From a virus (taxonomy: Duplodnaviria > Heunggongvirae > Uroviricota > Caudoviricetes), in IMG/VR virus record IMGVR_UViG_3300009149_000021: DNA of 64,000 nucleotides. One strand, written 5' to 3'. The stretch's first letter is position 1. Each line of letters begins with the position of its first letter. A program made the translations under genes and the position numbers. Below the pieces are notes generated by a model. That model saw nothing but the letters and a program-made list of their open reading frames with translations, had not been told where the DNA came from and ran no database searches. This document shows, one piece after another, positions 16,489 through 57,289 of the stretch.

Positions 16489-16512
16489 GCAAATCCTCGT
16501 TTTTTATATTGA

Positions 16513-24892: not shown

Positions 24893-25793
24893 TTAATTTA
24901 TCCCCCTTATAAAAATTTATCAATTTATGAACATCAACAATTTTACCTTCTATATTTCTTAATATATCAGCTATATTAGCATTCTTCTCAAGTTTCAAAT
25001 CACCATAAAATTCTTCAATGCATTTTATTAATAACATTTTTATTTTTTCTTCATCAACTTCATATGGTATTGTAGAAGCATCATATAACTTCTCAAGCCT
25101 TGCTTCATTTCTTTCAAAAAAATCTAAGATTCTCTGTATTTCCCACTCGCCTCTGCGAATAGATTTTAAAACTTCATTATGCTTCATAAGATCCATTTCG
25201 CCAGTAGTTAAGAGTTCCTCAACCTCAAGGAGAAGTCTGACTAAATGTGATGCAAATTTTACATCATAACCATATTTCTCAACTATTGCTACACGCTTTC
25301 CTTCCGGAACTTTTTTCTGCATCTTATCTTTCTGGCTCATCGCATATCCTCTGAAGGTGTGCCAACATTGTTTGCTGACAAATATTCTTCTATTTTCCAG
25401 AACCATTTTTCCTATTCGTGTTATGTGAGTGTGTAATTGCTCTCTGGTAAAGAGAGAATCTAACATGTTGGGGTTGTTATTAGCCACCAATCTAAAATAC
25501 CGCACAATTGAAAATATTGTTCCTTCAGCTTCTTTCTTTTTATATATAAATTTCCCTGGTGTTTGAAATTGTTTAAATATGGGAATATTGTTATCGAATC
25601 CATGTATGTATCCAAATAAATTTGGAACTATAAATTGTTTTGGTGGAATTGTAAAACCGCAAATATCATAATCCGATTGGTCGGTTTGACATCCATATGC
25701 TTGTGATCCAACAATAGTTTCATATTGTAGGTTATCTACTATCCACTCATCAAAACAACAACATGCTTGTAAAACGGATTTATTTATAATCAT
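24858..25793 (-). CDS. minimal Pol-beta-superfamily nucleotidyltransferase
   Basis: VGSQAYGCQTDQSDYDI fits the G[SG]-x(9-13)-D-x-D NTase signature. Confidence 0.5.
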   Translation of the reverse strand: MIINKSVLQACCCFDEWIVDNLQYETIVGSQAYGCQTDQSDYDICGFTIPPKQFIVPNLFGYIHGFDNNIPIFKQFQTPGKFIYKKKEAEGTIFSIVRYFRLVANNNPNMLDSLFTREQLHTHITRIGKMVLENRRIFVSKQCWHTFRGYAMSQKDKMQKKVPEGKRVAIVEKYGYDVKFASHLVRLLLEVEELLTTGEMDLMKHNEVLKSIRRGEWEIQRILDFFERNEARLEKLYDASTIPYEVDEEKIKMLLIKCIEEFYGDLKLEKNANIADILRNIEGKIVDVHKLINFYKGDKLSELDTDNCEDN

Positions 25794-27165: not shown

Positions 27166-27387
27166 CTAACCTCCATCAAAGATCACCTTCCATTGTATGT
27201 CCTTCCATATCCCAAAAATACTCATATAAGCATACATCCAACTGTCCCTCAATGAGTATTCTATCAAAGATTTTCTTTGATTTATATTTTCTACTAGTAG
27301 ACTTTTTACCATTAATCTTTTTCATATTTATACTCTCCTCCTCTCATTTCTAAAGGTAAAAGAAATAATTATATTTCTTTACCGGCA

Positions 27388-28209
27388 TCAGGCCGGGTTT
27401 GCTCCTCTTTCCACTAAATACTCTTTTATCTCTGAATTGCAAGCATTTCTGACTAAATAATTTCTATGAAGATCTACCCTACAATTACATTCTTCCACAA
27501 GATATTTAATCAGAGACATATTTCCTTGTTTACATGCAACCTTTAAACTATAATGTGCACATGCATATGGTGGGCATCCTCTCGATATAAAATACTTTAC
27601 AATATCATTATACCCTTTTTCAGCAGCTCTTCTCATTGGATGACATTGATATTGCATGATGCTGGCACCTTTTTCTTCAACTAAGTATTTTACAATTTCT
27701 ATATTATCACTTTCAACAGCATAGGATATAAACAAATTATAAAAAACTTCTGGATAATTATCTATGAGTATTTTTGCAAAATCATTGTTTTCATACATAA
27801 TAGCATACTCAACAATCTTCTGAGGTTTTGGCAGATTATTTTTCCATTCTAGAAATAAATCTATATTATTTAAACATGCCAGCAATCGATATGCATTTTT
27901 TTGTGGTTCATAACCAGCGGTCCATGCTCTTAGAATATCAATAGAATTTTCACCTCTGTTGAAGATGTTTGCAAGATCTTTTATAAAAATAATATTGACA
28001 TTTTTACAAAGCATTTCCCGTGTTATTTCAAAATTTGTTTCTTTTTCTTTCTCTTTCTTCACTGGTGCATCATAATCTTTGATAAATGCTGCAAAAAAGT
28101 TTCTAATTGCTTCAAAAATCTTCACGTCAATCCTCCCAGATTTCTTTGATAACTTCTCTTTCTTTTTCCGATAAACCAACAATCCTATTAATAATTCTAT
28201 CTTTTTCAA
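27388..28209 (-). CDS. ankyrin-repeat protein
   Basis: Repeating AAEKGYNDIVKYFISRG / ACKQGNMSLIKYLVEE ankyrin-like units. Confidence 0.5.
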   Translation of the reverse strand: MKKIELLIGLLVYRKKKEKLSKKSGRIDVKIFEAIRNFFAAFIKDYDAPVKKEKEKETNFEITREMLCKNVNIIFIKDLANIFNRGENSIDILRAWTAGYEPQKNAYRLLACLNNIDLFLEWKNNLPKPQKIVEYAIMYENNDFAKILIDNYPEVFYNLFISYAVESDNIEIVKYLVEEKGASIMQYQCHPMRRAAEKGYNDIVKYFISRGCPPYACAHYSLKVACKQGNMSLIKYLVEECNCRVDLHRNYLVRNACNSEIKEYLVERGANPA

Positions 28210-29782
28210 ACCCTTTTGGCATTAACCCTTCTGGTTCAAATGGAATGTATGCTGGATCATCATATCTATGAAATTCTCTGACCTCTTCAACATTTGCGAT
28301 TTTCCTAGCCCACACGGACAAATTTGTTGACCCACATTGCATATCACAATTATACGCTCTTTGATTTTCCTCATCCCAATATGGTCTATCGCAAGAAATA
28401 GTATATTTAAAAACATCCAAAAAATTCAGATGTTTGGCCAAAAACCATTGTTCACTTTTCATCAGATCACTCAAACCATAAAAAAATTCTATTCTATTCC
28501 CACAAATTGTGCCTGTTTTAAAAAGCGAATTTAAAGAATCTATAAAGTTTCTCGAATTATCTGGATAAGATCCAGACTCTGTCATATTTGCCCACCCAGC
28601 ACACAAATACACAAAATCATATTCATTTTTTAATATCAACCCTTCAGCATATGCCGCCATGACTGTAGAAAAAACCATGTTTCTTCCAGCAGTCCATGCT
28701 ATTGTTTGCTTCAATCCTTCTTCTGTCCCAGTCTCGATTTTAACATTTTCGTTCATCAACATACTAAAATTATCGATTTTTGAGTATGCATCCTCTAAAC
28801 TAATTATTTCCAAAGGGATGTTCATTTCTCTGCAAATATTTTGTATTGCCCACTCTTCACATTTTTGACCCCTGTGTCCATATTTAAAATGGACGGCGGT
28901 CACATCTTTATCCAATTTTTTCAAAAGTGCCAATGTTGTTGTTGAATCTATTCCTCCGCTTGCCGCTACCAAATGTTTAACTCTTGGTGATTTTATAGAT
29001 TCCAAAATCTGTTTGTCCCACGATGGATGTGCGTAATTTGGTTCAAATGGTATTTTATTTATGAATCCAGAATCAATATCTATTTCTAAAATTCTGTGTG
29101 GTTGTATATTATGATGATACCAATCTTCCCAGACATTCATTCCATCAGTTTTAGATCCAGTTATATCCTCTATCACCTCTCCAATTGTTTCATTTAAACT
29201 ATGGAGCAAATAGCCATAACCTCTTATATAGCCCTGAGATAAAGGATTGTGATTCTTAATTGCGTATAATTTTTTCTTAAAAGAATCATACATTATAGCA
29301 GAAACACCACCACTTATAAATTCCATAGCAGCCTTAATATCATATCCATAATTTAAGTATGCATGGACAATTGCTTCAGAATCTATATCTGTGTGGAACG
29401 AAAATCCCCTTTGTTTCAATTCTGATATACTTTTTGTGGAAATTGCTCCATTGTGAACCAGACATATATTTCGTTCTTCTTCTCCTAGAAAAATTGGCTG
29501 CATTCCGTCTTCTGATGATTTTTCAGTTTCTGGTTGTGCTCGGCATATTCCAATAACTATATCATTTGGTCTTATCCCATCCGAATATAATTTTAAGATA
29601 TCATCTCTACAATCAGAATAACTTTTAGAATATCTTTTTCCAAAACTTGTATTATCATCCACGCCGATTACAACAAACGCACATCCATCATTTCCTCTTT
29701 TCTCCGCCCCTTTAAATAATAAATCTAATCTTTTTATTCCAAGAATAGATTCTCTTCCCCAGTATGCAAATATGCCACACAT
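28127..29782 (-). CDS. asnB: asparagine synthetase (glutamine-hydrolysing)-like
   Basis: N-terminal MCGIFAY (Ntn amidotransferase Cys2); PP-loop SGGIDST. Confidence 0.75.
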   Translation of the reverse strand: MCGIFAYWGRESILGIKRLDLLFKGAEKRGNDGCAFVVIGVDDNTSFGKRYSKSYSDCRDDILKLYSDGIRPNDIVIGICRAQPETEKSSEDGMQPIFLGEEERNICLVHNGAISTKSISELKQRGFSFHTDIDSEAIVHAYLNYGYDIKAAMEFISGGVSAIMYDSFKKKLYAIKNHNPLSQGYIRGYGYLLHSLNETIGEVIEDITGSKTDGMNVWEDWYHHNIQPHRILEIDIDSGFINKIPFEPNYAHPSWDKQILESIKSPRVKHLVAASGGIDSTTTLALLKKLDKDVTAVHFKYGHRGQKCEEWAIQNICREMNIPLEIISLEDAYSKIDNFSMLMNENVKIETGTEEGLKQTIAWTAGRNMVFSTVMAAYAEGLILKNEYDFVYLCAGWANMTESGSYPDNSRNFIDSLNSLFKTGTICGNRIEFFYGLSDLMKSEQWFLAKHLNFLDVFKYTISCDRPYWDEENQRAYNCDMQCGSTNLSVWARKIANVEEVREFHRYDDPAYIPFEPEGLMPKGFEKDRIINRIVGLSEKEREVIKEIWED

Positions 29783-32174: not shown

Positions 32175-32909
32175 TTAAAAACTCCCTGTTAAATAGTTAA
32201 CACTCAACCTTTTCAAATAATTTTCCGTAATTGTCTTTCTGGGATACTCAAAATTGTTTAAATTATCAGAATAATATTGTAATATGCTCCGATCATAAAA
32301 CGGACGAAATATCCCTAAATCAAACAAAATAACATTTTTCCTAAAACAAGCTTTACAACTCAGGCACTCGGTCGTGCCTGATGGTTTAAAACAAGAAAAT
32401 GTTAATTTTTGTAAATCATTTTCATCGAGAATAGTGTTTTTTAATGTTTGTTTCACCATTGCTATTTTAGAATACTCACTGAATAAACTTCCTATAGATA
32501 CTCTTTTGGAATATGTGCTCATAAAAAATTCATTGGATTTATCTATAAATATTTTTGAATTATCATGGACTCTATCATCTAAAGTATTACCTATTAAAAT
32601 AGAAAGATCATCCTTGTTGAAGTATTTCAATGTGATTAATATTAACATCAAATTCCGATATGGGATGAACACTTCATCTGCATCTTCCAACAGATCGAAT
32701 AGATCATGATATATTGGCAAAAACTTATCCATTAAATTTGATCCAAATTTCTTCGATAGTTGAGTGAGTGTCTCTTCTATTTTACTTAATTCTGCATGTT
32801 GATAATCAAGACCCATGTGGACATAAACAAAATAATCAGTAATATCGTGGATGTTCGCCAATGTGCACACTGAGTCGAGTCCGCCTGAGAATAATAATAT
32901 TTTTTTCAA
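32175..32909 (-). CDS. QueC-like PP-loop ATPase (7-cyano-7-deazaguanine synthase family)
   Basis: MKKILLFSGGLDS PP-loop; DYQH; IPYRNLMLILITL (QueC PGRN region); C-terminal Cys cluster CFKPSGTTECLSCKAC. Confidence 0.55.
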   Translation of the reverse strand: MKKILLFSGGLDSVCTLANIHDITDYFVYVHMGLDYQHAELSKIEETLTQLSKKFGSNLMDKFLPIYHDLFDLLEDADEVFIPYRNLMLILITLKYFNKDDLSILIGNTLDDRVHDNSKIFIDKSNEFFMSTYSKRVSIGSLFSEYSKIAMVKQTLKNTILDENDLQKLTFSCFKPSGTTECLSCKACFRKNVILFDLGIFRPFYDRSILQYYSDNLNNFEYPRKTITENYLKRLSVNYLTGSF

Positions 32910-32922
32910 AATTCCTCCAGAC

Positions 32923-34662
32923 TTAGAAATTCAATCCTATTGAATTTAAATAGTATCTAAATAGTTGTAGTGTTGCTGGTTCGCTTTTCATTTCAACCGT
33001 TTTCGCATAACCAGTATTAAATAAATTTCTAAGTAAACTAATTTTGCTTCCAAGATCATCGGATTTTATATTTACTTCTTTTAAATTTTCTATTGCATCA
33101 TATGCTATCATTGCCCAAACTTCCATCTCGCCAATTCTCTGTGCTCCCTGGCCAGATGCGGGTTGGATTGTTTTCCTCGTGTAGTTTCCAACTGTTCTTG
33201 CTTTGAGCTTTCCATCTATAGTATGTATAAGTTTCATTAAAAACATATTACCAACCGCAACAGGTCCAATCGTTCTTCCCTGTAGTTTCAGAGGATAATA
33301 TTGTTTTGTCGCAGTATAATCCATGAATAAATCCAGATTATCTTTTGTGAAACTTTCGAATGGTGGTTGTATAAGAACCAAATCTTCAATTAATTTTTTA
33401 TCCATTCCATGTCTTTTAATTAAATTTGCTACTTCCTTGCTATACCATTTGTCTTTAGATGTATCTATATGATTGGTTATACCTGCCAAAGCTTTCATGG
33501 CGTATTTAGGATCTTCATCAAATTTCTTCGATAGTTTTTGTTTTAGGAAATGCATACCAAGTCCAGCGTGCAATTCAAACAGCTGGCCAATATTCATACG
33601 AGAAATTATACTCAGCGATCCTAATATAACTTCCAAAGGTTGTCCCCACGGAGTTACAGGCATTTTTTTATCTGGAACAATAATACTTATAACACCTTTA
33701 TTACCATGACGATTGGAAAATTTGTCCCCAACCCTTGTGTATTTTTTATAGGTGTATTTTATTTTCATTATCATACCATCAATTCTCACACCTTTATCAT
33801 TGATATGACCTTTGAATTTATGAATATCACAATTCATAGCATCAATTGAATTATTCAGATCGCTATCTGAAATTTTATCTTTCAATTTTATCATTTCACC
33901 ATGAATATGTTTTGAATTTTCTAGAACTGATACAATATAATGATTGAACTCACTGTAGTTTTTGCACCAATCATTTATATAGAATTTCACATCTGTTACA
34001 GTAATATCATCTTTCAATGTTATTGGTCTCGGGGAATCACATAAGAATCTTGGGTTGCTTGAAACATATTTTATTAGAAGGACTGGATCATTCTTTTTTA
34101 CAATATCACCAATTTTCGGAATCGGTTTATAATCTTTTCTATCTAATGAAAGCAGAACTTCATTCATATTAAGACTTATAATCAATTCATCTTCAGCAAG
34201 TGATGTGAATTTTTCAGCAGCTGATTCGGAAAAAACTATAGAATCCTCATGACAATAACCAAAGTATTCCATGTACCCGACTAACATATTTCTTCCATAC
34301 TTTATATTTCCATTTTCAGTACTAATATGTTCGTAGATGATATCACCAGTTTTAAATTCTTCATCGGTTTCATAATAACAGTTCAGATACCAATGCATTT
34401 TAGATGTCTCAAAAGTTTCATCCTCATATTGCAAAATCAGTAATTGGTTATTCTTAAACAAAACCTTTCCTGATTTCTCAGCAATCTTAGTATATAAACC
34501 AAGATGTGAAATGTTATCATAACCAGTACATATCAAAGGAATTTCTGGATTTTCCAAAATCAATGACTGCTTCATTTGAGAAGCAGCCATTTGACAACGG
34601 GTAGGGTCATCATTTTGAACAAATGGTATTAGACAAATGGGAAATGTCGTAAAGTCAGACAT
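32923..34662 (-). CDS. multisubunit RNA polymerase beta subunit, C-terminal half
   Basis: LIPFVQNDDPTRCQMAASQMKQ (beta motif IPFLEHDDANRALMGxNMQRQ); GDKFSNRHGNKGVIS (GDKxxxRHGNKGVxS). Own AAGGAG RBS 11 nt after the stop of the N-half gene. Confidence 0.85.
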   Translation of the reverse strand: MSDFTTFPICLIPFVQNDDPTRCQMAASQMKQSLILENPEIPLICTGYDNISHLGLYTKIAEKSGKVLFKNNQLLILQYEDETFETSKMHWYLNCYYETDEEFKTGDIIYEHISTENGNIKYGRNMLVGYMEYFGYCHEDSIVFSESAAEKFTSLAEDELIISLNMNEVLLSLDRKDYKPIPKIGDIVKKNDPVLLIKYVSSNPRFLCDSPRPITLKDDITVTDVKFYINDWCKNYSEFNHYIVSVLENSKHIHGEMIKLKDKISDSDLNNSIDAMNCDIHKFKGHINDKGVRIDGMIMKIKYTYKKYTRVGDKFSNRHGNKGVISIIVPDKKMPVTPWGQPLEVILGSLSIISRMNIGQLFELHAGLGMHFLKQKLSKKFDEDPKYAMKALAGITNHIDTSKDKWYSKEVANLIKRHGMDKKLIEDLVLIQPPFESFTKDNLDLFMDYTATKQYYPLKLQGRTIGPVAVGNMFLMKLIHTIDGKLKARTVGNYTRKTIQPASGQGAQRIGEMEVWAMIAYDAIENLKEVNIKSDDLGSKISLLRNLFNTGYAKTVEMKSEPATLQLFRYYLNSIGLNF

Positions 34663-34673
34663 ATTTTCTCCTT

Positions 34674-35942
34674 TTAATCAATAAGTCCCTCCTCATCTTC
34701 AGTAAACAAAATATTTCGTTTTTCTTCGATAAGCTTCGAGTTGATTGTTAAAAAATTAACAATACCACATGCCTGCCTATCTGCTGTTAATATCGGATCT
34801 AAATTCATATAATAACTCTCATGTATATTTCTCAGATCAGTTGGCATCGATTTTTTACTCAGCCCCTGTGGTCCAGAATATGTTCCTTTCATAGACTCTC
34901 CTATGCTGTGTATAATAGTAACACCGTGATCCGCTAAATGGTGCATTTCTGGCATCTTACCAGAAAGATAATTTGTTATATTTACGGTTTTGTTCTTGTC
35001 AACCTTATATGAACTTCTTGATATCAAAAACGAAAGTATTTCTGAAAATAAAGGTCCGAGAATATATTGAGAAAGTAAAACATCTTTTCTCACTAGGTTT
35101 CCGCGCTCTTGTGTGTGTTCATCTCTATTTAAAAACCTATGAAATAATTCCTGTGGTATTGATGGTTGGGTCAATTTCAATGATATAAAGACATCCGATT
35201 GTTTAACATAATCAAAATACTCTATCAAATTGAACTTTTTATATTTAAACGAATTAGACATCTCCCACCAGAATTCCTTGGAATTGAATTTTACTTTATT
35301 GTTTATTTTCTGATCTAGAAAATTTTCAATGAGCATATCGAACGATTCATTTTCAGGATCAATCTTTTCGATTACTATGCGCTCTGATATTTTCTCTGTT
35401 ACACTTTTAGATATACTAATCAATCTATGGTTACATTTTTCCAAAAACCATTCTAGATCATTATAATAACACATCATATTTCCCATGTGTGTTTTCTTAT
35501 CCGCAATACCAGTCCATCCCTTGTTTGCGTTAAAATGGATTGTAAGAATAGTACCAATCATCCTAAAGATATCTTTTGATACAACAAATGTATCCAATAA
35601 TTGAAATAACGGATGTCGATAAACCCCGTTTATAACGAATTCCAAAGTGTGTTTTTCCGGCACAGGATAAACTATTTCTAAATTATAGTTAAGAACTTTG
35701 GTGTTTGATTGATTATTATATTTTATATTTATTTTTAATGATTTTTCCAAAGTACTTTTTATAGTTTTGACCCTTCTTTTTGATGTGGAACTCTCATCAA
35801 GTTCCACATCAACTATTCCAGGAATCAATTTAATTTTTTCAATAATCAATTTTATTGTTTTTTCTATGTTATCACGAATTTCTTCTCTCTTATATGCAAA
35901 CACTTTATCAACAAATGCAGGATTTCTAAAATTATAAATCAT
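34674..35942 (-). CDS. multisubunit RNA polymerase beta subunit, N-terminal half
   Basis: FVINGVYR (beta GxFxINGxER) and DLRNIHESYY...DPILTADRQACGIVNFL (beta HPTHYGRxCPIETPEGxNxGLI region). Confidence 0.7.
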   Translation of the reverse strand: MIYNFRNPAFVDKVFAYKREEIRDNIEKTIKLIIEKIKLIPGIVDVELDESSTSKRRVKTIKSTLEKSLKINIKYNNQSNTKVLNYNLEIVYPVPEKHTLEFVINGVYRHPLFQLLDTFVVSKDIFRMIGTILTIHFNANKGWTGIADKKTHMGNMMCYYNDLEWFLEKCNHRLISISKSVTEKISERIVIEKIDPENESFDMLIENFLDQKINNKVKFNSKEFWWEMSNSFKYKKFNLIEYFDYVKQSDVFISLKLTQPSIPQELFHRFLNRDEHTQERGNLVRKDVLLSQYILGPLFSEILSFLISRSSYKVDKNKTVNITNYLSGKMPEMHHLADHGVTIIHSIGESMKGTYSGPQGLSKKSMPTDLRNIHESYYMNLDPILTADRQACGIVNFLTINSKLIEEKRNILFTEDEEGLID

Positions 35943-35961
35943 AAAATCACCTCCATATGAC

Positions 35962-38592
35962 CTATAGGCGATTGAACATAAATTTCAATAAAATATTATT
36001 ATAATTTGGATTCTTTAATATTTCGTAGAAATTTGTTCTGCCCGGGCTAAACGCAAATGCAAGCAATGGAGATTGGAATCCTATACAAACTATCTTACTA
36101 TAAGCTTTATATGGTACATCAACACCCATCCTTCTCCATAACACTAATTTACCATCAGAATCTGACCACAATAACTGAGATATAAGTAATTCCACATGGA
36201 CCATTTGTATATTGGAATAAGAACCATACACTTTCATGAGTATCGATAACATTTCCCTATAACTTTCACATTTACCAGACAACACATCACCAACTTTTTT
36301 CATATCAGAAATGATATCTTCCTGAGTATCGGAACCCACTTTCGCAATAGCAGCACCTGATATGTGGAAAGTTCTTAAGACGTGCTGTGTATTTATTTCA
36401 CCGATCGCCTGTGCTGCAATAAAACCAACATAACGGCTTCTGGCAAGTGAACTCAACTCACCATAGCATTTTTTACAAATATTTTTTCCTTTGCATCTGA
36501 TTGGCGATCGCAGCACTAATTTTTTTCCAATATCATCAACAGTTACTTTTCTAGATACACCCAATTCATCAATTACATATCTCCCATATAAATGATTAAT
36601 CATCTTTTCATCTAACTTAATTGGTATTCCTTCTGTTGTTCCACAATCTTCAGAGTCATAGTCCAATTCAATTGATGACATGGCATAAATTAATTGTCTG
36701 GTCATATATCCAGCTTTGGCTGTATTCTCTGCAGTATCGATAAGACCTTTCCTTGTTCCATAACATGATAGAAAATGTTCTCTTGGAGTCAAACCCTCGA
36801 TCAAACTATGTATGATAGGTGTTTTCAAAAAATTTCCCTGGTAATCAGAAACATGTCCCCTTGCCCAGAAAATCTGTTTTGCCTGCAACCAATCACCTCT
36901 AGCAGAAGATCTTATCAATTTATTCAATTTGAATTTCGGTTTTAATCCTTCTATATATCGTTCTTCATTAGCTATATTTACATTTGGATTATCACTATTA
37001 TATATTTCTTTTTCTTTTAATTCATATGTTACTTCTGGTATTACATAATTATCAAGACATACGTTTACTGGATAAAATGTACTATATTCAAATCCAATGT
37101 TTTTTATTTTATCACATACTCCAGCCACGATATCACTACTATATTTGATACTCAACTCATATAATATATTCTTTATAGTTTTTCTATCAATCGTTTCATT
37201 CACAAATGGATAATCTTCAGGAAATATTTTATTAAATTCGACTCTTCCTTTTGTGGTTTTGATTCCTTCGTGTTCAATTTCTTCATTAAAATCATATTCT
37301 TTATCATCCTGTGTCAGAATAAAAATACCATATACCATGGACTGACTAGGTGCAAAATTGAAATTTGTATTAGAAACACTTAGGAGATTTTTAGAAGGGA
37401 GCATTTTATCTATGCATTCAACAGTAGCATCGATGGTCAGTGGTCTATATATTGCCATTTGATCGCCATCGAAGTCAGCATTATATGGTGCACATATTAA
37501 CGGATTTATATGAATTGCTAACGTATCTTTTGTAACTACTTTAAATGCAAACATGCCCATTCTATGCAATGTTGGTTGTCTATTCAAAATTATTATTTTT
37601 CCATCGCATGTTTCTTTTATAATATCGTGCAAATTTATCTGATCGGTTATATGTTTCCCCAATAATTCATTTGCTTCCTGTGATGTAACACACACCTTCT
37701 TCTGCAACATATAATTTATGAGTTCTGGTTTAAATAAAGATACCAACAATTTATCAGACACACCAGCTTCATCCAACCCAAGACAAGGATCTACTACAAT
37801 AGTTGATCTTCCTGAGAAATCAATTCTTTTTCCTAATAAATTGTTTCTTATTAATTTTTGTTTATCGCCATTTATATAATCTTCACAATGCTCATACATT
37901 TTGAAGACATCATACCATATCCCCATCACAAAATCATAATTAAAAAATTTAGTTTTTTCCGGTTCAGTGAATTTATTATATTGTTCAATTTTAATTAAGA
38001 TATGTTGATATATATAATTCAGTGAATCCATGGCAAGCTCTTTATTTGTGACAATTATAGGTCTGAGATCAGGTGGTATAACAACAATATGTTTTGTATA
38101 TATACTATCAAATTTAGTCTTCAGAACTTTATAAATATCTGGAACGAATTTCTTTGCCATTTCCTCAACTAACTCATACAATACCTTTATGTCCATTTCA
38201 TCGTCACTTACTTTTTCTACAAATTTTCCTTGTTCAAGTTCGTAAAACGTATAACCTGTCAGCAATCTTGCCATCATTTTAGAAAAACGATCTGATTTTT
38301 GCTTCATTGCCAAATATATCATTGGATGTAGAACTAGACAAGGCAATTTAATGGTCGCCATGGTTCTTCTTCTCACTATGCTTGATGTGAATCTGACACC
38401 ACATCTCTCACATAATTTACCAACATCAGTTGTATTTTTAATTTTGCATTGACACGTATAGTCTCGAACGGGACCAAAGATTTGTTCAGAAAAAATTCCT
38501 TGCGAATGAAATGTATTTTGCGATTTCATGATTTTACTGGCAGATATTTCCGGAAGTCCTTCTCCGTATTTTTCAACATCCAGTAGTTTCAA
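35962..38592 (-). CDS. multisubunit RNA polymerase beta' subunit, N-terminal part (A'-like)
   Basis: N-terminal Zn motif CQCK...CERCGV; universal catalytic NADFDGDQM motif; 876 aa. Confidence 0.85.
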   Translation of the reverse strand: MKLLDVEKYGEGLPEISASKIMKSQNTFHSQGIFSEQIFGPVRDYTCQCKIKNTTDVGKLCERCGVRFTSSIVRRRTMATIKLPCLVLHPMIYLAMKQKSDRFSKMMARLLTGYTFYELEQGKFVEKVSDDEMDIKVLYELVEEMAKKFVPDIYKVLKTKFDSIYTKHIVVIPPDLRPIIVTNKELAMDSLNYIYQHILIKIEQYNKFTEPEKTKFFNYDFVMGIWYDVFKMYEHCEDYINGDKQKLIRNNLLGKRIDFSGRSTIVVDPCLGLDEAGVSDKLLVSLFKPELINYMLQKKVCVTSQEANELLGKHITDQINLHDIIKETCDGKIIILNRQPTLHRMGMFAFKVVTKDTLAIHINPLICAPYNADFDGDQMAIYRPLTIDATVECIDKMLPSKNLLSVSNTNFNFAPSQSMVYGIFILTQDDKEYDFNEEIEHEGIKTTKGRVEFNKIFPEDYPFVNETIDRKTIKNILYELSIKYSSDIVAGVCDKIKNIGFEYSTFYPVNVCLDNYVIPEVTYELKEKEIYNSDNPNVNIANEERYIEGLKPKFKLNKLIRSSARGDWLQAKQIFWARGHVSDYQGNFLKTPIIHSLIEGLTPREHFLSCYGTRKGLIDTAENTAKAGYMTRQLIYAMSSIELDYDSEDCGTTEGIPIKLDEKMINHLYGRYVIDELGVSRKVTVDDIGKKLVLRSPIRCKGKNICKKCYGELSSLARSRYVGFIAAQAIGEINTQHVLRTFHISGAAIAKVGSDTQEDIISDMKKVGDVLSGKCESYREMLSILMKVYGSYSNIQMVHVELLISQLLWSDSDGKLVLWRRMGVDVPYKAYSKIVCIGFQSPLLAFAFSPGRTNFYEILKNPNYNNILLKFMFNRL

Positions 38593-38602: not shown

Positions 38603-39016
38603 CTATAAGAAAGTGATTGTTTCACCCTTAGTATAATAAGACATATAATTCCACGACGTCTGCGACCTGTATAATAATAAATCAAACAATATCATTTTTA
38701 CAAGTTTTTCATTGTCATGAGAATATTCCCACAATGCATCGGTCACTGGAACCTCATTTTCAACAGTACTTAATAACGACATCGAAGGGTGACTACCTTT
38801 CTTAATTATAACAACTTTCCTGAGTTTGTCAATGATTATTTTTCTTATGTTATATCTGTTTGCAACATAAAATAATCCGTCTGGCACATTTGCATAATAT
38901 ATGTACCAATCACCATTTACTTCCAATGTATCATAATGAATTTTAGTTTTCCCCATATTAGAAACTATATATTCCATCAACTCTTCGAACTTTTCTTTTT
39001 CTATTGCAAGGTACAT
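38603..39016 (-). CDS. hypothetical protein, possible degenerate JAB/MPN-like fold
   Basis: LEVNGDW resembles the JAB E-x-x-G motif; KKGSHPSMSLLSTVENE resembles JAMM HxHx7Sx2D but lacks the first His. Confidence 0.25.
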   Translation of the reverse strand: MYLAIEKEKFEELMEYIVSNMGKTKIHYDTLEVNGDWYIYYANVPDGLFYVANRYNIRKIIIDKLRKVVIIKKGSHPSMSLLSTVENEVPVTDALWEYSHDNEKLVKMILFDLLLYRSQTSWNYMSYYTKGETITFL

Positions 39017-39480
39017 AATAATTCACCATCTCCAAAAACAAGACAAATATTAGAATTACACAATACATTCGTCACAACATTCAAACAAAGTTCATTTGAA
39101 AGAAATAATTTGTTTATAAAAAAGAAACCATGGATTTTATTATTATTCATCATATCTGATATTGCTTCTTCATTGAGTCCACTTCCGATTTTACACAAAC
39201 CATTAAATATATTCTTTCGAGTATTCCATGTTAAAAACTGATCCTTGCCAATGTGATTTATAAATTTCTTACATGATTTATTTATCAATAAAAAATAATA
39301 ATCACCAATGTCGAGATAACCTCTTTTAAATTCAAGTTGGCCCAATCTTTTTATTTTGTAATCAGTATTTTCAAACGTCGTATATTTATTTTCATCGAAA
39401 TCTAATGTTTTAATTTCCATACTATATACCCCACTACTATGCAGACATATTAAGAATAAAAAGATGATTATTCTTTTCAC
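39001..39480 (-). CDS. exported hypothetical protein
   Basis: ORF 159 aa; signal-like MKRIIIFLFLICLHSSGVYS. Confidence 0.4.
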   Translation of the reverse strand: MKRIIIFLFLICLHSSGVYSMEIKTLDFDENKYTTFENTDYKIKRLGQLEFKRGYLDIGDYYFLLINKSCKKFINHIGKDQFLTWNTRKNIFNGLCKIGSGLNEEAISDMMNNNKIHGFFFINKLFLSNELCLNVVTNVLCNSNICLVFGDGELLCTLQ

Positions 39481-39790
39481 CTACAATATATTTTCCATTA
39501 GTTTTTTCCACAATTAGATTTTTTATTTCATTTTTGGATAGAGAAGAAACAACTTCATCACATTTTATATTGCTCTTTGGTACTCCAAAAATATCATATA
39601 TCTCATCCACCCCAGGTGGAATATGAACAATCGTCTGTGGTTTTTCTTCGAACCCATCATCAACAATCGGAGTAGATTTGGCCTGAGGGAAAGGTATGTG
39701 TATACATTTTGTCGGTTGTTTTTCATCGAAAGCATCATCAATCATCTGATCAATTTCAATCTCGTTGTATTTCGACGATTCTGTTATCAT
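39437..39790 (-). CDS. small acidic hypothetical protein
   Basis: ORF 117 aa. Confidence 0.35.
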   Translation of the reverse strand: MITESSKYNEIEIDQMIDDAFDEKQPTKCIHIPFPQAKSTPIVDDGFEEKPQTIVHIPPGVDEIYDIFGVPKSNIKCDEVVSSLSKNEIKNLIVEKTNGKYIVGEKNNHLFILNMSA

Positions 39791-40373
39791 ACTCCTCCTT
39801 CCATATTAAATTATTTTTTGACATAGATTTAAAATCAACAATAAACGATTTAATATTAGATTTATTTGATTCGAGAACATCAATCAAATAACTACAGAAT
39901 TTCATAGAATTATGAATATCCGGCTTACTATCATATTCTTTTGGGTTATATCTGAATTTAAGATAATCTTCTTCATTTAAAAGGATACCACACTGATTGT
40001 TAATGAAACATTTGAAATAAAAATTTGAATTTAAGTTATTTATAACTTCATTATTATCGCGAAAGTCAAGCGCCAGATCAAACTCTGCCACATTATCATG
40101 TAAATAATCCTCGACTTTCCCGCAACAAAAATCCACAATACTAACATATGGGTTGTGAATTTTATAAATTAATCTGATGCACTCCACGATCTTAGATTTA
40201 TTTACATTAGAATACCATGTATACTTAAGATCGTCATCACTTATATTATCGTAGTCTACCAATGAAATATCCCATGATTGATTTAGATCATTGGTTTTGA
40301 GAAGCGTAAAAAGAAAGTTGGCTCCTAATGTTCCCAATCCTCCCATTAGAACTCTCAATAATCCTCCTTTCAA
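39756..40373 (-). CDS. E1-like/ThiF-MoeB-family adenylyltransferase domain protein (short; no obvious catalytic Cys region)
   Basis: VLMGGLGTLG (GxGxxG), ISLVDYDNISDDDL (ThiF LxLxDxDxVxxSNL region), NPYVSI, DLALDFRDN...IN, CGILL; ordered matches to E. coli ThiF. Confidence 0.65.
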   Translation of the reverse strand: MKGGLLRVLMGGLGTLGANFLFTLLKTNDLNQSWDISLVDYDNISDDDLKYTWYSNVNKSKIVECIRLIYKIHNPYVSIVDFCCGKVEDYLHDNVAEFDLALDFRDNNEVINNLNSNFYFKCFINNQCGILLNEEDYLKFRYNPKEYDSKPDIHNSMKFCSYLIDVLESNKSNIKSFIVDFKSMSKNNLIWKEEYDNRIVEIQRD

Positions 40374-41719
40374 GCTCCAACTATATCAAATCCATTTAAT
40401 AAATAGAATTCTTTTCTTAGTTCCCATTCATCAATTAATCTTTGATGGGATGAATCTAGAAAATCAATAACAACTGGTGGTTGTTTACTTTCATGGATTC
40501 TTAGAATTCTTCCTATAGATTGTTCTAAATATGTTGGGCTTACCATAGAGGAGAGGAATATCAATGTGTCTAAGGAACTTTCATCTATTCCTTTATAACA
40601 CATTGCGTAATTTGATAAAATCACTTGTTTGGATAATGCATCTCTTCCTACACCAGAAATAAATACCGATATATCATCATCCAGAACATCATATTTTTCA
40701 ACAAGTATATTTTTCATCTCTTTTAGAAAATCATTTTTGAGACCAGATAAAATTAATAATTTTCTTTTTTTATCATATGCTTGTTTTATAATAGAACAGA
40801 CCATTTTTAAATAACCAGTTCTTTTAATTATTTGTTTATAATACTTTCTTTTATCAAATCTTCCCCCCCAATAAATATATCTTTTAAAATTATCATCTAG
40901 CTTTGATTCAAACTTCACAACCTTGATGGTTGGTTTTATTTCGTGTACGGCGTGAACATACATTTTATTAGATAGCCATGATTTTATTATAGTTTCCCTA
41001 TTTAAATTTTTATAGGGTGTGGCACTCAAACCTATCAATCGTTTTGAAAAACAATATGCGCATGCGGTTGTAAACGCTTCCGGCCCTATTATACAATGAA
41101 CCTCATCAAAAAATGTTAGACCAAAATTTGCTGCTTTCATGATAGCACCAAAAGATTTCCCATCTTTTCTAATTTTAGCCAACACACTTTGAACAGTCGT
41201 TATAACAATTGGATAATCCAAATTTAATTTTTTATCTAAAATACCTATATCACTTTCTGCACAGGACGAATGTTGCGTAAATCTCTCTATCCATTGTTCT
41301 GCTAATGCTAGTTGATCGACAAAAATTAATGCCTTTTTCCCTATGTCACAAATAGCTTTTATAGCAACGACAGTTTTCCCGAAACCAGGAGCGCATTTTA
41401 TAAATCCACAATAATTATTTATAATAAAATCTACAGCTTCTTTCTGATATTCATTTCTATATTTCACTTTACTTGTCATCGAAATAGATTCACCAACATC
41501 GGAATTATTAATTATTCCTGGCCGCTGAATAATATTCCTCGGCATCAACAGTTCACTTCCTAGCTCTTTATACAATTTTATCTTCTTAATTTTAGAATCA
41601 AAATTGAATTCTTGTATTGTCATGATGTCTTTCAAATATTCTATTTGATCACACGACAATTCTTTTTTATTAATATGTAGCCAGGAATCTATGTACACTA
41701 TCGTTCCTCCTCTATCCAA
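40370..41719 (-). CDS. SF2 DEAD/DEAH-box helicase
   Basis: Walker A APGFGKT; DEVH box FFDEVHCI; helicase C-terminal arginine-finger region. Confidence 0.7.
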   Translation of the reverse strand: MDRGGTIVYIDSWLHINKKELSCDQIEYLKDIMTIQEFNFDSKIKKIKLYKELGSELLMPRNIIQRPGIINNSDVGESISMTSKVKYRNEYQKEAVDFIINNYCGFIKCAPGFGKTVVAIKAICDIGKKALIFVDQLALAEQWIERFTQHSSCAESDIGILDKKLNLDYPIVITTVQSVLAKIRKDGKSFGAIMKAANFGLTFFDEVHCIIGPEAFTTACAYCFSKRLIGLSATPYKNLNRETIIKSWLSNKMYVHAVHEIKPTIKVVKFESKLDDNFKRYIYWGGRFDKRKYYKQIIKRTGYLKMVCSIIKQAYDKKRKLLILSGLKNDFLKEMKNILVEKYDVLDDDISVFISGVGRDALSKQVILSNYAMCYKGIDESSLDTLIFLSSMVSPTYLEQSIGRILRIHESKQPPVVIDFLDSSHQRLIDEWELRKEFYLLNGFDIVGA

Positions 41720-49660: not shown

Positions 49661-50230
49661 TCAGAATGGGGCCGGAGGTGCACCAGATCCAGATTCGGGA
49701 GAATTATATTTTGTTTCTCTTTCTGGTCGATTGATAAACTCGTGATATAAACCGAGCATGACCACATCTTTAATAATAACATTTAGAAATGATTTAAACA
49801 TCAATAAATCCGCTGGTGTATGTAATAAATAATTTCTAGATTGTTTATCTTCTCTAGAATAGATGTTAATTGTTGTCTTGAGAATTCCTCTATTATCTTT
49901 CCATTTACCAACATTCAAAGTAGTAACATCATTACCTTCCACCTTATCACTCTTACTTCTATCATGATACAAAGGATCTACTTTTTCTTCTGGGTTCCTT
50001 TCTAACACAGCCAAATCGACTAACAATTTAGCTGCTTCAGCTGGGGCAATTGAAAAATATCTAGCATTCTTATAATCATATATGTTGCTACCTTTCGATG
50101 CTGGTCCTTTCATATCTCTATTCTCGTCAATAGCTGGAGCTATTTCTAAGCTTCCGTTTTTCTTAGCGAAATTAACCTTTAAAATCATTACTGATTTTTT
50201 TCCATAAAACCTAAAATAATCTTGGGTCAT
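49661..50230 (-). CDS. hypothetical protein
   Basis: ORF 189 aa directly upstream of the RNR; the 113-aa ORF at 49441..49782 overlaps it in another frame and is probably shorter or spurious. Confidence 0.4.
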   Translation of the reverse strand: MTQDYFRFYGKKSVMILKVNFAKKNGSLEIAPAIDENRDMKGPASKGSNIYDYKNARYFSIAPAEAAKLLVDLAVLERNPEEKVDPLYHDRSKSDKVEGNDVTTLNVGKWKDNRGILKTTINIYSREDKQSRNYLLHTPADLLMFKSFLNVIIKDVVMLGLYHEFINRPERETKYNSPESGSGAPPAPF

Positions 50231-50249: not shown

Positions 50250-53200
50250 TTATGAACATTTGGAATATCCACAACTGAGACATTCCATGCAACCTTCCTG
50301 GATGGAAAGTGATTTCTCTTTACATTTGGGACAAATCTGCATCCCCTCTGTTGTAACATCATCCGTATCGGTAAACGAATATTTTAACATTTTTGCTATA
50401 GCATCAACCACGGATGTCACTGGAATTGGTTTTTTGGTAAACTTATGCCACATGACATCATTGGATGCAATATTTTCTAATTGATTTATTATCTTTCCAA
50501 GTGGTATATGGTAAGACAAACAGAGCGAAATCAATCTTCCGATTGCTTCAGTATAACATCCCAGCTCACTTCCAGATTTTCCAACATTCAAAAATATCTC
50601 CAATGGTATTCCCTCTTTAGAATTGACAGTTATAAATGCATCGTATTCTGGGAATTTGAATTTTTCAGTGAAACCAAAAAGTTTCTCTGGTCTGGAAACA
50701 TCTTTTAATTCAATTTTTGGTTTCTCTTTTGAAACACCACACAATATTCCTTCTCTTTTACAACCGGAACGATATACAGTTATTCCCTTACAACCGGACT
50801 TCCATGCAAGCATATAAAGTTCTTTCACATTTTCTACTGTGGTATGATTACCAAGATTAACAGTAGAAGAAATACTATTATCTATATATTTCTGAATCAA
50901 ACCTTGCAGTTTAACTCGCTCTTTCCAATTAACTTCATATGCTTGTGGAAAGAAATTTTTTATTTCTTCATCAGATTCAACAATCCTCATTTCCTTGGCA
51001 TATTTTATTGCATTGTGCCAGATTTCGAACGTTTCTTGTTTTCCTGATATATTGGTCTTCCTCGTATATGTCCTCATGAATACTGGTTCTATCCCAGAAC
51101 TACAATTAGAATAAATCATTTTATTATTTTTAATATTATAAATTCCACCACCGATAATTGATAATGAACCAGTTGGTGCAATTGTATTTACAGTGACATT
51201 TGCAATCGGTTTATCTTTCGGAATATTAAATTTTTCAAAAAATGGTGTACTATAATATTTTTCAGTATCAAAATCATTAACAATTATTCCATGCTCGGTA
51301 GCCAAATTTTGTGATGTTATATAAGATGTAGTTCTAAATTCTTCGAGAAGTTCTTTTAGAAATTTTGTTGTATCAGCTCCCATGTTGTATCCAAATCTCA
51401 TCAACCCCAATACATCACCCAATGCAGAAATTCCCAAACCAATTCTTCTATATTTTTCTGCCTTCTCGCGAATTTCTGGAAGCGCAAACATGTCATACTT
51501 CAACTCATAATCTAGAACGGCATTCAAGGCTAAAATTCCAACTCTGATGGTGTTCCTGAAACCTTCAAAGTTGAATGTGTTATCCACATAAAATTTATCA
51601 AGCATTACTGCACCAAGTACGCACTGCTCATATTTTGCCATTGAAATTTCACCACACTGCCTTTGATATATATTATAGTGTGTAACAGCACTTTTTGACT
51701 CTTTTATTTTTCCCAACACCGTTCCAACTATATGATTATCATCAACTGTAATATTATAAACATCCTCATAACCATCAAATTCAACAGAAACAACTTTATG
51801 ATTAACATTTTCAACAACATCTTCTTTGATTGCATTCCAAGAAAATGATCCTTCAGACCATCTATACATACCACTTGGACGATATTCTCGTTTAATACGA
51901 TTAATTAAACCATCATATTTACTATACTTTTCATTGTATGGTATCTTAAAAGCATCTTCAAAATATATTTTCCATTCTTCAAGACTAGGAAATCTATCCA
52001 ATCTAATAGAATAATCTATAAATTCATTATATATTTTGTGAAATTTATCCGTTGAAACTTTATTTGCTTTTAATAAATATTTTTCCGATTGATATAATGC
52101 AGCACATGTACTTGAACAAAATGCCCTTTCACGTTTTGAATATTCGACCCAAAAGTTAGAATTACATTTTTCACAAACTCTCAAACAATAACATTTCCCA
52201 TCAGCCACATCAAACTTAATAACCAAATCCGAATTATCTTTATTTTGAATATACCAACGATATGCAATAATTGAATGATACCTTTGTATCGACCATTCTT
52301 TTTTATAACCAAATATCTCAAAGTTTAATTGATCAATTAAATCATATGTTTTATATAATTTGCTATTTCTACAATAACCTTTTTCACCAGCATGTTTTCT
52401 CCATTCAGATTTTGTTATTGGTCCATTGTATCCATTTAAACATTCTTTAATTTGATCTAGATGCTCATCTTTTGAAACATCGATAGCTTTTCCATTTTTA
52501 AATCCAGATGTACTTTCTGACATTTTTTTACGATATTTTTGTCTATTTTCTTCAGTTGTTTCATTCCACCAATTTTGCATTGGATTATTTTTATTCATGT
52601 GTAATCTGTTATGTTCCGAATGCTTCATCAATCTAAGATTCTCAATTAAATTATTTCTAGGATTTCCATCTATATGGTGAACAACCATTTTATTTTCAGT
52701 ATTGAAAATTTTGTTATCCAAATCATTATAAAATTGATAAACATACCTGTGTTCAATCTTAGAAAATTTAACATTATCTATTTTTGAAATATTCCAATAA
52801 GAAGTTTTTTTATTAAAACTTTTAGTCGAAACAAACAAACTATCTCCAGCAGTTAAATCCTTAGCTTCACACTCAGATAGATTTCTCAAAATAAACTTAT
52901 GATTCTCAGTACATCTAACAACAGAACCATCGTCCAAAGTCACCTTCAATATCTTTTTATTTCTACCAGTCAATCTAGGATTTCTACCTGTTTTAATTTC
53001 AACAAAACCTGTTTCTTTATTTAATGAATACACTGGAACATCTTTTTCTTCATCTACTAATTGTTTAATTGGGACCATACCCCTGCCATCAGCAACAGAA
53101 ATCAACATATCACCAGTTAAACATGGATTTACACCTTCTGGTGTGCTCTCTGGATGGAAACAACCTGGATTATAATTTACCATTCTATCTTTAAATATTA

Positions 53201-53993
53201 TCCCAGGCTCTGCCCAATCCCAAGCATTCGTACAAATTAAATCAAATATTTCTTTAGCCTTTATCATTCTTTTAATTGACGCTTTATCATTCTCAAACTT
53301 CAATTCCCAATCAGAATCATTCTCAACTGCTTTCATAAAATCATCACTAATCATTATACTAATATTGGCACCTTTAATATAATTTTCATCTTGTGTTTTC
53401 GATTTTATAAACTCCACAACATCTGGATGTGTGCAATCGAGAAAAATGATAGATGCTCCACGCCTACCGGCATGCCCTATTGTGTTTGTTATTTCTGAAT
53501 AAAGATTTGCAAATGGAACAACACCCGCAGTTGACTTAGCTGCGTTGTTTACCTTGCACCCATCTGGTCTTAAATTGTTGAGGTGCAGTCCATTGCCATA
53601 ACCATATTTTAAAACATGAGCATGGAGACTCGCAAATTTCATGATAGATTCCATACTATCGTCTGGGCCACCAGTATATAGACAATTGCTGAGTGTGAGA
53701 TTCACACTCTCGCCTCTTTTTCTAGCAAAATGAAGTCTTAAAATTCCATGTAAAATTCTACCACCTAGAATAAATTTAAATCCTTTCATAGAATTATATA
53801 ATTCAGCCTTGGAAACATATTTAGTTTCCAATTCGCCAGACAAAATGTCCCATGCTTCAGGCGGAGAAAGCAAGGTATCTTCATCTATTAATCCATATTT
53901 TGTTGACCATGTTTTTGAAACAAATTCATCCCCATTATAGAAATCCATAATTTTTTTAAAACGCTTGTGTTTTGTAATATCAACAGACATCAA
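50250..53993 (-). CDS. nrdJ: ribonucleotide reductase, class II (adenosylcobalamin-type, NrdJ-like), interrupted by an intein
   Basis: Extein junction restores NP|CGEI (class II NPCGE active site) followed by QCVLGAVML; C-terminal Cys4 zinc-ribbon CPKC...CLSCGYSKCS typical of many class II RNRs. Codon 1 in the ORF track is TTG; ATG follows at 53990. Confidence 0.8.
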   Translation of the reverse strand: MMSVDITKHKRFKKIMDFYNGDEFVSKTWSTKYGLIDEDTLLSPPEAWDILSGELETKYVSKAELYNSMKGFKFILGGRILHGILRLHFARKRGESVNLTLSNCLYTGGPDDSMESIMKFASLHAHVLKYGYGNGLHLNNLRPDGCKVNNAAKSTAGVVPFANLYSEITNTIGHAGRRGASIIFLDCTHPDVVEFIKSKTQDENYIKGANISIMISDDFMKAVENDSDWELKFENDKASIKRMIKAKEIFDLICTNAWDWAEPGIIFKDRMVNYNPGCFHPESTPEGVNPCLTGDMLISVADGRGMVPIKQLVDEEKDVPVYSLNKETGFVEIKTGRNPRLTGRNKKILKVTLDDGSVVRCTENHKFILRNLSECEAKDLTAGDSLFVSTKSFNKKTSYWNISKIDNVKFSKIEHRYVYQFYNDLDNKIFNTENKMVVHHIDGNPRNNLIENLRLMKHSEHNRLHMNKNNPMQNWWNETTEENRQKYRKKMSESTSGFKNGKAIDVSKDEHLDQIKECLNGYNGPITKSEWRKHAGEKGYCRNSKLYKTYDLIDQLNFEIFGYKKEWSIQRYHSIIAYRWYIQNKDNSDLVIKFDVADGKCYCLRVCEKCNSNFWVEYSKRERAFCSSTCAALYQSEKYLLKANKVSTDKFHKIYNEFIDYSIRLDRFPSLEEWKIYFEDAFKIPYNEKYSKYDGLINRIKREYRPSGMYRWSEGSFSWNAIKEDVVENVNHKVVSVEFDGYEDVYNITVDDNHIVGTVLGKIKESKSAVTHYNIYQRQCGEISMAKYEQCVLGAVMLDKFYVDNTFNFEGFRNTIRVGILALNAVLDYELKYDMFALPEIREKAEKYRRIGLGISALGDVLGLMRFGYNMGADTTKFLKELLEEFRTTSYITSQNLATEHGIIVNDFDTEKYYSTPFFEKFNIPKDKPIANVTVNTIAPTGSLSIIGGGIYNIKNNKMIYSNCSSGIEPVFMRTYTRKTNISGKQETFEIWHNAIKYAKEMRIVESDEEIKNFFPQAYEVNWKERVKLQGLIQKYIDNSISSTVNLGNHTTVENVKELYMLAWKSGCKGITVYRSGCKREGILCGVSKEKPKIELKDVSRPEKLFGFTEKFKFPEYDAFITVNSKEGIPLEIFLNVGKSGSELGCYTEAIGRLISLCLSYHIPLGKIINQLENIASNDVMWHKFTKKPIPVTSVVDAIAKMLKYSFTDTDDVTTEGMQICPKCKEKSLSIQEGCMECLSCGYSKCS
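51657..53123 (-). mobile_element. intein with HNH homing-endonuclease domain inside the RNR active-site region
   Basis: Starts CLTGDMLISV right after NP; HNH motif HHIDGNPRNNLIENLRLMKHSEHNRLH; block-G-like VYNITVDDNHIVGT; host protein resumes at CGEI. ~489 aa. Confidence 0.7.
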
Positions 53994-56905: not shown

Positions 56906-57289
56906 TTATTGCTGCTGGGAGGAAATGATTTTCACTCTTTCAACAAGCATCCTTATTCCAGTTTTTTCAACTGAGTCGAGCAGAACCCTGGTGAATGACG
57001 GCCTAACAACAACATAATAACCACTCGATTCAATAAAACTATCAGACACTGCTACGCCCTTAATGGCCTGATTAACTGCACCAGCACCGATTGCGAGGAG
57101 ACGACAGCTTGGATATCTGCCGAGAAGAGAAGCGATGGAACTCCCTAACTTCTTTGTGTCTGTTGTTGCTGCCACCTTCAATTCAATATCACTCTCATCC
57201 TTTACATCGACAACCTCATCTGTTTTTGTTGTGACATCGACAGTAGTTATCTCGTCTACGATTTCGGTAACCATTTCGATTTCGGTCAT
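56906..57289 (-). CDS. SpoVS-like (stage V sporulation protein S family) domain protein with acidic N-terminal extension
   Basis: LLAIGAGAVNQAIKGVAV...SSG...VRPSFT aligns with the SpoVS core QAIGAGALNQAIKAVAIARGF...SG...IPAFT. Confidence 0.55.
   Translation of the reverse strand: MTEIEMVTEIVDEITTVDVTTKTDEVVDVKDESDIELKVAATTDTKKLGSSIASLLGRYPSCRLLAIGAGAVNQAIKGVAVSDSFIESSGYYVVVRPSFTRVLLDSVEKTGIRMLVERVKIISSQQQ

Follow-up and report, generated by a model that had tools for sequence, protein, structure and literature searches.

We analyzed a 64,000-nucleotide stretch of DNA from a tailed phage (Caudoviricetes; IMG/VR record IMGVR_UViG_3300009149_000021), hereafter called the window, and focused on a small gene cassette that encodes a protein resembling the E1 enzymes of the ThiF/MoeB superfamily. 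The window is AT-rich (about 31% G+C), and all of its sizeable genes are located on the minus strand. Its predicted gene content is that of a large virulent phage, and the phage is uncultivated and known from metagenomes only. The cassette is part of a conserved block with the gene order helicase–E1–A–B–C–RNA polymerase β′, as follows.

40370-41719, minus strand: XPB/Rad25-like superfamily 2 (SF2) helicase with matches in Pfam, PHROG and PDB, the upstream neighbour of the cassette
39756-40358, minus strand: E1-like protein of the ThiF/MoeB superfamily, 200 amino acids, with a TTG start (mechanical open reading frame 39756-40373)
39437-39790, minus strand: protein A, 117 amino acids, the proposed partner or substrate, starting 35 nucleotides inside the E1-like gene
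39001-39420, minus strand: protein B, about 139 amino acids, conserved, with an ATG at 39420 supported by a ribosome-binding site and homologues
38603-39016, minus strand: protein C, 137 amino acids, conserved, described earlier as a degenerate JAB protein, overlapping the end of B
35962-38592, minus strand: RNA polymerase β′-like subunit, the downstream neighbour that closes the conserved block

The open reading frames (ORFs) of the helicase (40370-41719), the E1-like protein (39756-40373) and the 137-amino-acid protein (38603-39016) were all found on the minus strand where the original prediction, which was made from the sequence alone, had placed them. Gene boundaries in this minus-strand run were set by ribosome-binding sites and homologues. 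For the E1-like gene, an AAGGAGG ribosome-binding site is located at 40369-40363 and the homologues begin at the same residue, which places the start at TTG 40358. The protein had been described as a truncated E1/ThiF-like protein of 205 amino acids that aligns motif by motif and lacks a catalytic cysteine; all of this agrees with our analysis except for the length, which is 200 amino acids. Since the genes are tightly packed and the coding strand of the cassette showed no terminator-like site, the genes are probably co-transcribed.

The assignment of the E1-like protein to the superfamily was examined with the window protein and with its family. Searched alone, the window protein matched ThiF in Pfam (PF00899) at E=0.0039 and 16.8 bits, which is below the gathering score of 28.1 bits, and MoeB in the PDB (1jw9) at E=0.0018 over residues 7-119. 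All eight family members matched Pfam ThiF (best 8.1e-8) as well as the NCBIfam ThiF model PRK08644 (best 6.5e-8), with NCBIfam scores far under the family thresholds (for example 24 bits versus 376 for MoeB). One member, P0009, carries a precomputed ThiF match, and one member, from lineage L003, matched the PADLOC "E1-E2" models of Cap2 (5.6e-6). The family profile matched MoeB, two ThiF-type entries (9egb/9egc), Cap2 (7tsx, 7tsq, 7to3), ThiF and UBA5 in the PDB. The AlphaFold model of the protein is weak, with a predicted local distance difference test score (pLDDT) of 57 and a predicted template modelling score (pTM) of 0.62. A Foldseek search with this model retrieved Cap2, ThiF, MoeB and Atg7 over the full length, with probabilities of 0.96-0.99. 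Judged by these matches, the protein is a true but very distant member of the ThiF/MoeB/E1 superfamily, with a similarity beyond chance, and its family appears as a minimal (about 200 residues) and very divergent variant inside this superfamily.

Much of the nucleotide-binding site has been kept. Residues G12, G14, G17, D40, D42, K61, D81, D103, D106, Y119, N125, Y147 and P151 are invariant in all eight members; the GLGxxG loop is thereby fully conserved, and D103 and D106 are located in an LDFRDN motif. In the alignment to MoeB, G12/G14/G17 correspond to G38/G40/G43, D40 to D62, K61 to K86 and D103/D106 to D127/D130. K61 and D106 also correspond to Lys83 and Asp127 of ThiF, which contact ATP and Mg and are listed among the ATP-site residues of that enzyme (PMC12596934). 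The family has retained the Rossmann-type GxGxxG loop, the ribose-binding Asp (D40), the Lys (K61) and the Mg-binding Asp (D106). No cysteine is conserved across the eight members, and hence the family lacks the catalytic Cys of a canonical thioester-forming E1. Zinc-site CxxC pairs were not found in the family either, and the C-terminus of the protein varies in both length and sequence between homologues.

The E1-like family is tiny, narrow and found in metagenomes only. It comprises five clusters at an identity of at least 61% among 5.8 billion sequences, and a profile search of 1.84 billion cluster representatives added only three further, more distant members, which amounts to four cluster representatives among 1.84 billion proteins. 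No additional members were detected in IMG/VR or in the GTDB genomes, and the JGI metagenomes contained only lineages already known. GenBank phages showed no DNA match to the region and no protein match to the E1-like protein, A or C. Vibrio phage Va2 is a distant relative by its β′ subunit; it was set aside since no homologue of E1, A, B or C is located near its polymerase gene.

DNA downstream of the E1-like gene was available for six independent lineages (the window, L001/L011, L002, L003, L004/L010 and L005/L006). Gene A follows directly after the E1-like gene in all six, down to an identity of 27% between the E1-like proteins, and the two genes overlap by 35-47 nucleotides in five of them. 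Homologues of B could be identified in four lineages and those of C in three. L005, which is the most divergent, has after A a gene without a match to either. Comparisons by hhalign revealed no relatedness among the E1-like protein, A, B and C.

Protein A has a core of about 67 amino acids that is common to its family, preceded by a variable N-terminus that is missing altogether in L003. Across the seven sequences, the only invariant columns are a Pro, a Cys and the penultimate Ser, and all seven copies stop one residue past this Ser, on Ala or Ser. In contrast to this fixed tail, the C-termini of the helicase and of SbcC vary in length and sequence. AlphaFold modelled A as a confident, compact domain (pLDDT 88, pTM 0.73) with the order β-α-β-α-β-β and a three-residue tail after the last strand, and as modelled A is a small α/β protein. 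Among the top 60 structure matches, about 26 are β-grasp proteins (protein L/G, MoaD/ThiS, Urm1, SUMO, UBX, PB1 and ISG15), but eL22 (13 matches) and POTRA (13 matches) score equal to or above them. Foldseek returned nothing significant for A, and its family profile had no match in the PDB. On the model, a β-grasp fold, and with it the status of A as a protein of the ubiquitin-like kind (Ubl), is unproven. The copy of A in the window additionally contains a 26-amino-acid insertion (39641-39745, minus strand), which is absent from its relatives and partly duplicates the motif of the first strand (KCIHIPFP before TIVHIPPG).

No classical Ubl was identified elsewhere in the window, as searches for ThiS, MoaD and ubiquitin gave no match. 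A 48-amino-acid ORF (27166-27312, minus strand) that abuts the next gene start and ends in ...KVIFDGG, a strand followed by Gly-Gly, was considered and rejected because it is too short for a β-grasp and has no Pfam match. Given the obligatory pairing, the overlapping genes and a fixed C-terminus of small residues that needs no processing, A is well ahead of all other candidates for the substrate of the E1-like protein.

The explanation that we tentatively favor, although we rate it somewhat short of an even chance, sees the E1-like protein as a minimal adenylating enzyme of the MoeB type that acts on the C-terminus of A, a dedicated partner with a tail other than Gly-Gly. Most likely, the enzyme would use the Gly loop, Asp40, Lys61 and Asp106 to bind ATP·Mg2+, and it would adenylate a carboxylate. 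This carboxylate would most likely be the C-terminus of A (-Ser-Ala or -Ser-Ser), which is fixed in every lineage. As conserved cysteines are absent from the E1-like protein, the reaction would either end at the acyl-adenylate, as in MoeB, or the acyl group would pass to a non-thiol nucleophile or to another protein. The earlier proposal of a protein C-terminus being activated by an E1-like enzyme survives in this form, with a partner that had been passed over.

There are precedents for the individual features. In Cap2, the E1 domain adenylates cGAS, a non-Ubl protein, at its C-terminus (bioRxiv 10.1101/2022.03.31.486616), and the E1 BubCD does without a catalytic cysteine (PMC11601596). BubCD, which belongs to the Bub (6E/DUF6527) systems, resembles the phage protein in having an E1 adenylation domain that lacks the catalytic cysteine. 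The only invariant residue in its crossover loop is a Tyr (PMC11601596); an equivalence with the invariant Tyr147 of the phage family, which is located in the loop before the long C-terminal helix, would be a positional guess from a weak model. Unlike the phage protein, BubCD keeps all adenylation residues, is fused to a JAB peptidase and has a Ubl and a Ser-E2 as its working partners; the phage cassette showed none of this. MccB and other ThiF-like adenylyltransferases that act on peptides made by the ribosome and modified after translation (RiPPs) are similar in that an E1-like enzyme acts on the C-terminal residue of the product of an adjacent gene, which is not Gly-Gly (PMC12596934). These enzymes have an N-terminal RiPP recognition element or peptide-clamp domain and short peptide substrates, whereas the phage protein has no extra domain and what it would act on is a folded protein of about 70 amino acids.

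Several observations weigh against an adenylating enzyme that is dedicated to A. The Arg-Gln of the SNLxRQ motif (R70/Q71 in ThiF, R73 in MoeB) has been lost, with the Arg replaced by Tyr or Ser; this region reads DLKYT, NIIST, NLKST or NKLYV in the family and contains no conserved Arg. The N-terminal helix that carries the trans Arg finger (R11 in ThiF) is also absent, since the proteins begin at β1. With two key phosphate-binding arginines gone, the catalytic competence of the E1-like protein is uncertain, and judging from its residues the protein could be catalytically dead. Furthermore, the structural model is poor (pLDDT 57), the tail of A is Ser-Ala or Ser-Ser rather than Gly-Gly, and the synteny within a conserved core block may stem from shared ancestry instead of functional coupling.

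The main rival, which we consider rather unlikely, is built on these losses. Here, the E1-like protein would be a pseudoenzyme or structural subunit that serves as a nucleotide-binding or scaffold component of the replication or transcription machinery, and A, B and C would be unrelated core proteins, such as RNA polymerase accessory factors. The absence of both phosphate-binding arginines and of any Cys or Zn site is as expected for a pseudoenzyme, the cassette is conserved as a block with the helicase and β′ genes between which it is located, and A, B and C match no family. It is hard to explain, however, why the Gly loop, D40, K61, D103 and D106 should be invariant down to 27% identity if nucleotide and Mg are not bound, and the fixed C-terminus of A would be left needing an explanation.

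The original prediction had instead paired the E1-like protein with protein C as a degenerate JAB protein, in a Ubl conjugation or counter-defence module that mimics Cap2/Cap3 of the anti-phage signaling system based on cyclic oligonucleotides (CBASS) or Bil and possibly modifies the helicase. The JAB-like motifs are literally present in the window copy of C, which has a GSHPS stretch and a length and N-terminal strand-helix pattern that fit a small MPN domain. Homologues of C are located at the same position in L001/L011 (50% identity) and L003 (33%), and another is P0007. The same protein C also occurs on a contig of 116.8 kb. Among the four homologues, the position of the JAMM Glu (Glu32 in the window) is occupied by E, N, D or R, that of the first Zn-ligand His is an invariant Gly74, and that of the Asp reads E, K, K or N and is not conserved. 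The second His (H76) is invariant. Conservation near the motif is thus limited to His76-Pro77 and Ser83, and only one of the four JAMM catalytic positions has been kept.

Neither single sequences nor the family profile of C matched MPN, JAB or RadC in Pfam (E up to 1-10), PHROG, PADLOC or the PDB. Aligned by hhalign to a JAB profile, which is thin in that it contains two sequences only (the N-terminal domain of λ K and PDB 2kks), C obtained a probability of 0.14% and a score of 10.9 with the HP dipeptide aligned, as compared to scores of 9.5-17.9 for unrelated control families. Since conservation is lacking at the Glu, first-His and Asp positions and no search gave a signal, an active JAMM protease is excluded for C on sequence grounds; the protein may represent an inactive MPN fold. 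The JAB motifs fail on both conservation and statistics, and the pairing of an E1 with a JAB protein was not upheld.

Other findings bear on the same module. No E2 (UBC-fold) component was detected in Pfam, PADLOC or PDB searches with B or any window ORF scanned. B, whose homologues in L001, L003 and L004 take the equivalent place, had no match in Pfam, PADLOC or the PDB; as an E2 it was rejected, as there was no match and the Cys of its loosely E2-like "N..G.C" stretch is missing in L003. Because A ends without an extension, a processing protease would not be needed. The cassette shares with Cap2 of type II CBASS, which is an E2–E1 fusion accompanied by the JAB protein Cap3, the homology of the E1 adenylation domain, and Cap2 provides the precedent for an E1 that activates the C-terminus of a non-Ubl. 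The phage cassette differs in that it has no E2 domain, catalytic cysteines, cGAS/DncV-like nucleotidyltransferase or detectable JAB, and in that its E1-like protein is located in the core gene block of a phage. The phage does encode at least one predicted counter-defence protein elsewhere, which is Apyc1-like. Nothing links the cassette itself to an anti-CBASS or anti-Bil activity, and it is located in the replication and transcription core and not among accessory genes. Thus, although the E1-like identity has been confirmed and one family member matches Cap2 models, we regard a module of this type as highly unlikely.

The helicase matched ResIII (4e-20), DEAD and Helicase_C in Pfam as well as PHROG 16 (DNA helicase), and its best PDB matches are archaeal XPB/Rad25 proteins (8e-10). 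By these matches, it resembles a normal core-block helicase for replication or recombination, and it is probably outside the function of the module, though likely co-transcribed with it. The -VGA terminus that had suggested modification by the E1-like protein is present in the window but incidental, as the tails of the homologues read ECP, LPY, LGL, NRW and FKE, and the helicase was therefore rejected as a substrate. The -EVG tail of SbcC is not conserved either. In L003, an extra gene for a protein of 331 amino acids with weak matches to glycosyltransferase group 1 is located between the SbcC and helicase genes (7458-8453); it is absent from the window.

Taken together, the earlier observation was partly confirmed and its interpretation partly supported: the E1-like protein was correctly recognized, the JAB assignment and the link to the helicase were not sustained, and a Ubl-like activation is possible. 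It had also been noted that a role of the E1-like protein in cofactor biosynthesis would argue against such a module. No match to ThiS, MoaD, ThiG or MoaE was found among the window ORFs scanned, which supports the conclusion that the protein is not part of a thiamin or molybdopterin pathway.

The closest likeness is nevertheless to MoeB–MoaD and ThiF–ThiS. These systems also consist of one adenylation domain of about 200-250 amino acids and a small partner encoded by an adjacent gene, with no E2, and they share the Gly-rich loop, the Asp after β2, the Lys and the DxxD(N) Mg site with the phage protein, for which they provide the best sequence and fold matches. The phage protein differs by its lack of the SNLxRQ Arg, the Arg-finger helix and the Zn CxxC pairs, and the crossover-loop Cys of ThiF has no conserved equivalent in the phage family. 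Moreover, A ends in Ser-Ala or Ser-Ser instead of the Gly-Gly of MoaD and ThiS, and there are no thiamin or molybdenum cofactor genes nearby.

A sulfur-carrier system of the ThiF–ThiS, MoeB–MoaD or TtuC–TtuB type was considered, in which A would be adenylated and thiocarboxylated and would donate sulfur for the thiolation of phage tRNA or DNA. The best profile matches are adenylyltransferases of ThiS and MoaD, and a minimal E1 without cysteine resembles MoeB. The phage also encodes tRNA-Lys(UUU), tRNA-Glu(UUC) and tRNA-Gln(UUG), which bear 2-thiouridine in many organisms, and PP-loop ATPases are encoded nearby. However, the same three tRNAs are expected in an AT-rich phage anyway, QueC is the best-scoring assignment of the PP-loop proteins, the window yielded neither a sulfurtransferase nor a rhodanese, and known sulfur carriers end in Gly-Gly, unlike A. 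We give this scheme a low probability.

A substrate other than a protein was also considered. ThiF-like enzymes activate many kinds of carboxylates (PMC12596934), and the phage has both tRNAs and tRNA repair genes, so that the E1-like protein might adenylate the carboxylate of a small molecule or nucleoside, with A being unrelated. Examples would be a TcdA-like synthesis of cyclic N6-threonylcarbamoyladenosine (ct6A) on phage tRNAs or a ThiF-like enzyme of secondary metabolism. The TcdA model was matched by only one of the eight members (E=0.13), the Arg motif that TcdA keeps is missing in the family, and the constant pairing with A would be left unexplained. The chance that this scheme is correct seems very slight.

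The preferred reading, in which the C-terminus of A is adenylated, can be extended to a more ambitious model that we consider distinctly unlikely in its entirety. The cassette would constitute a self-contained protein-activation system of the phage, in which an E1 without the Cys and the Arg adenylates the Ser-Ala or Ser-Ser tail of A. Protein A would subsequently be joined to a target of the phage or the host or act as a carrier, and B and C would serve as factors of a novel kind for transfer or removal. Embedded in the transcription and replication core, the system could be aimed at the polymerase or the XPB-like helicase. If correct, this would represent a viral route of Ubl-like tagging in which the chemistry of every step is new. 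Every ubiquitin-like and sulfur-carrier pathway begins with an E1-like enzyme, and the bacterial E1 systems Cap2, Bil and Bub have recently shown unexpected chemistry in phage defence. An active phage protein would define minimal requirements for carboxylate activation and would rank as an unusual instance of such a system belonging to a viral core gene set and not to host defence. An inactive one would be an E1 pseudoenzyme recruited to a viral replication or transcription module. Since the family is very narrow, the impact is limited until the host and the phenotype are known.

The polymerase genes that close the block (32923-38592, minus strand) encode a β′ subunit of 876 amino acids followed by a β subunit split over two genes (422 and 579 amino acids). 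The β′ protein contains the Pfam RNA_pol_Rpb1 domains 1, 2, 3 and 5, its position is kept in L001, L003 and L011, and its best matches, to bacterial and phage homologues, are only 24-30% identical. About 210 nucleotides upstream of the β′ start, inside gene C, is the only perfect σ70 consensus of the window (38805-38832, minus strand; TTGACA-16 nucleotides-TATAAT with an extended -10 TG). This candidate promoter was dismissed, as at least one such match occurred in 21% of the shuffled sequences and the site is not conserved, being absent from L001 and L003.

Besides this multisubunit RNA polymerase (β′ and split β), the window encodes a gyrase B-like protein, a topoisomerase II A subunit, SbcC, an Mre11-like nuclease, an NAD-dependent ligase, a ribonucleotide reductase with an intein, a CCA-adding enzyme, an RNA ligase, RlaP, two QueC-like proteins, a radical-SAM protein, an Apyc1-like protein and seven tRNAs. 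The genes for tRNAs, tRNA maintenance and putative base modification are as follows.

1846-16588, minus strand: seven tRNA genes (Lys-UUU, Glu-UUC, His-GUG, Pro-UGG, Asn-GUU, Gln-UUG and Leu-UAG)
20257-22059, minus strand: RNA ligase-dUTPase fusion, tRNA maintenance
23540-24892, minus strand: CCA-adding enzyme, tRNA maintenance, near the tRNA genes
24858-25793, minus strand: RlaP, tRNA maintenance
28127-29782, 32175-32909 and 54772-55791, minus strand: glutamine amidotransferase-QueC fusion, second QueC-like protein and radical-SAM protein, respectively

The QueC and radical-SAM set suggests a 7-deazaguanine (preQ0/ADG-type) pathway for DNA or tRNA modification; no match to tRNA-guanine transglycosylase (TGT) or DpdA was seen among the window ORFs scanned. 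The Apyc1-like protein (6991-7770, minus strand) has a metallo-β-lactamase fold and matched the Pfam Anti-Pycsar Apyc1 family with 61.3 bits, as compared to a curated cut-off of 50, which suggests that the phage probably degrades cyclic-nucleotide defence signals.

The intein of the ribonucleotide reductase (50250-53993, minus strand) contains an HNH endonuclease, whereas in the related contig L003 an intein is instead found in the topoisomerase II A subunit (2555-5086). Cargo that is unusual for a phage includes an ankyrin-repeat protein (27388-28209), a SpoVS-like protein (56906-57289), a protein with a weak Whirly-like single-stranded DNA-binding match (49661-50230) and an SPFH/Band-7 protein (15236-16207), all encoded on the minus strand.

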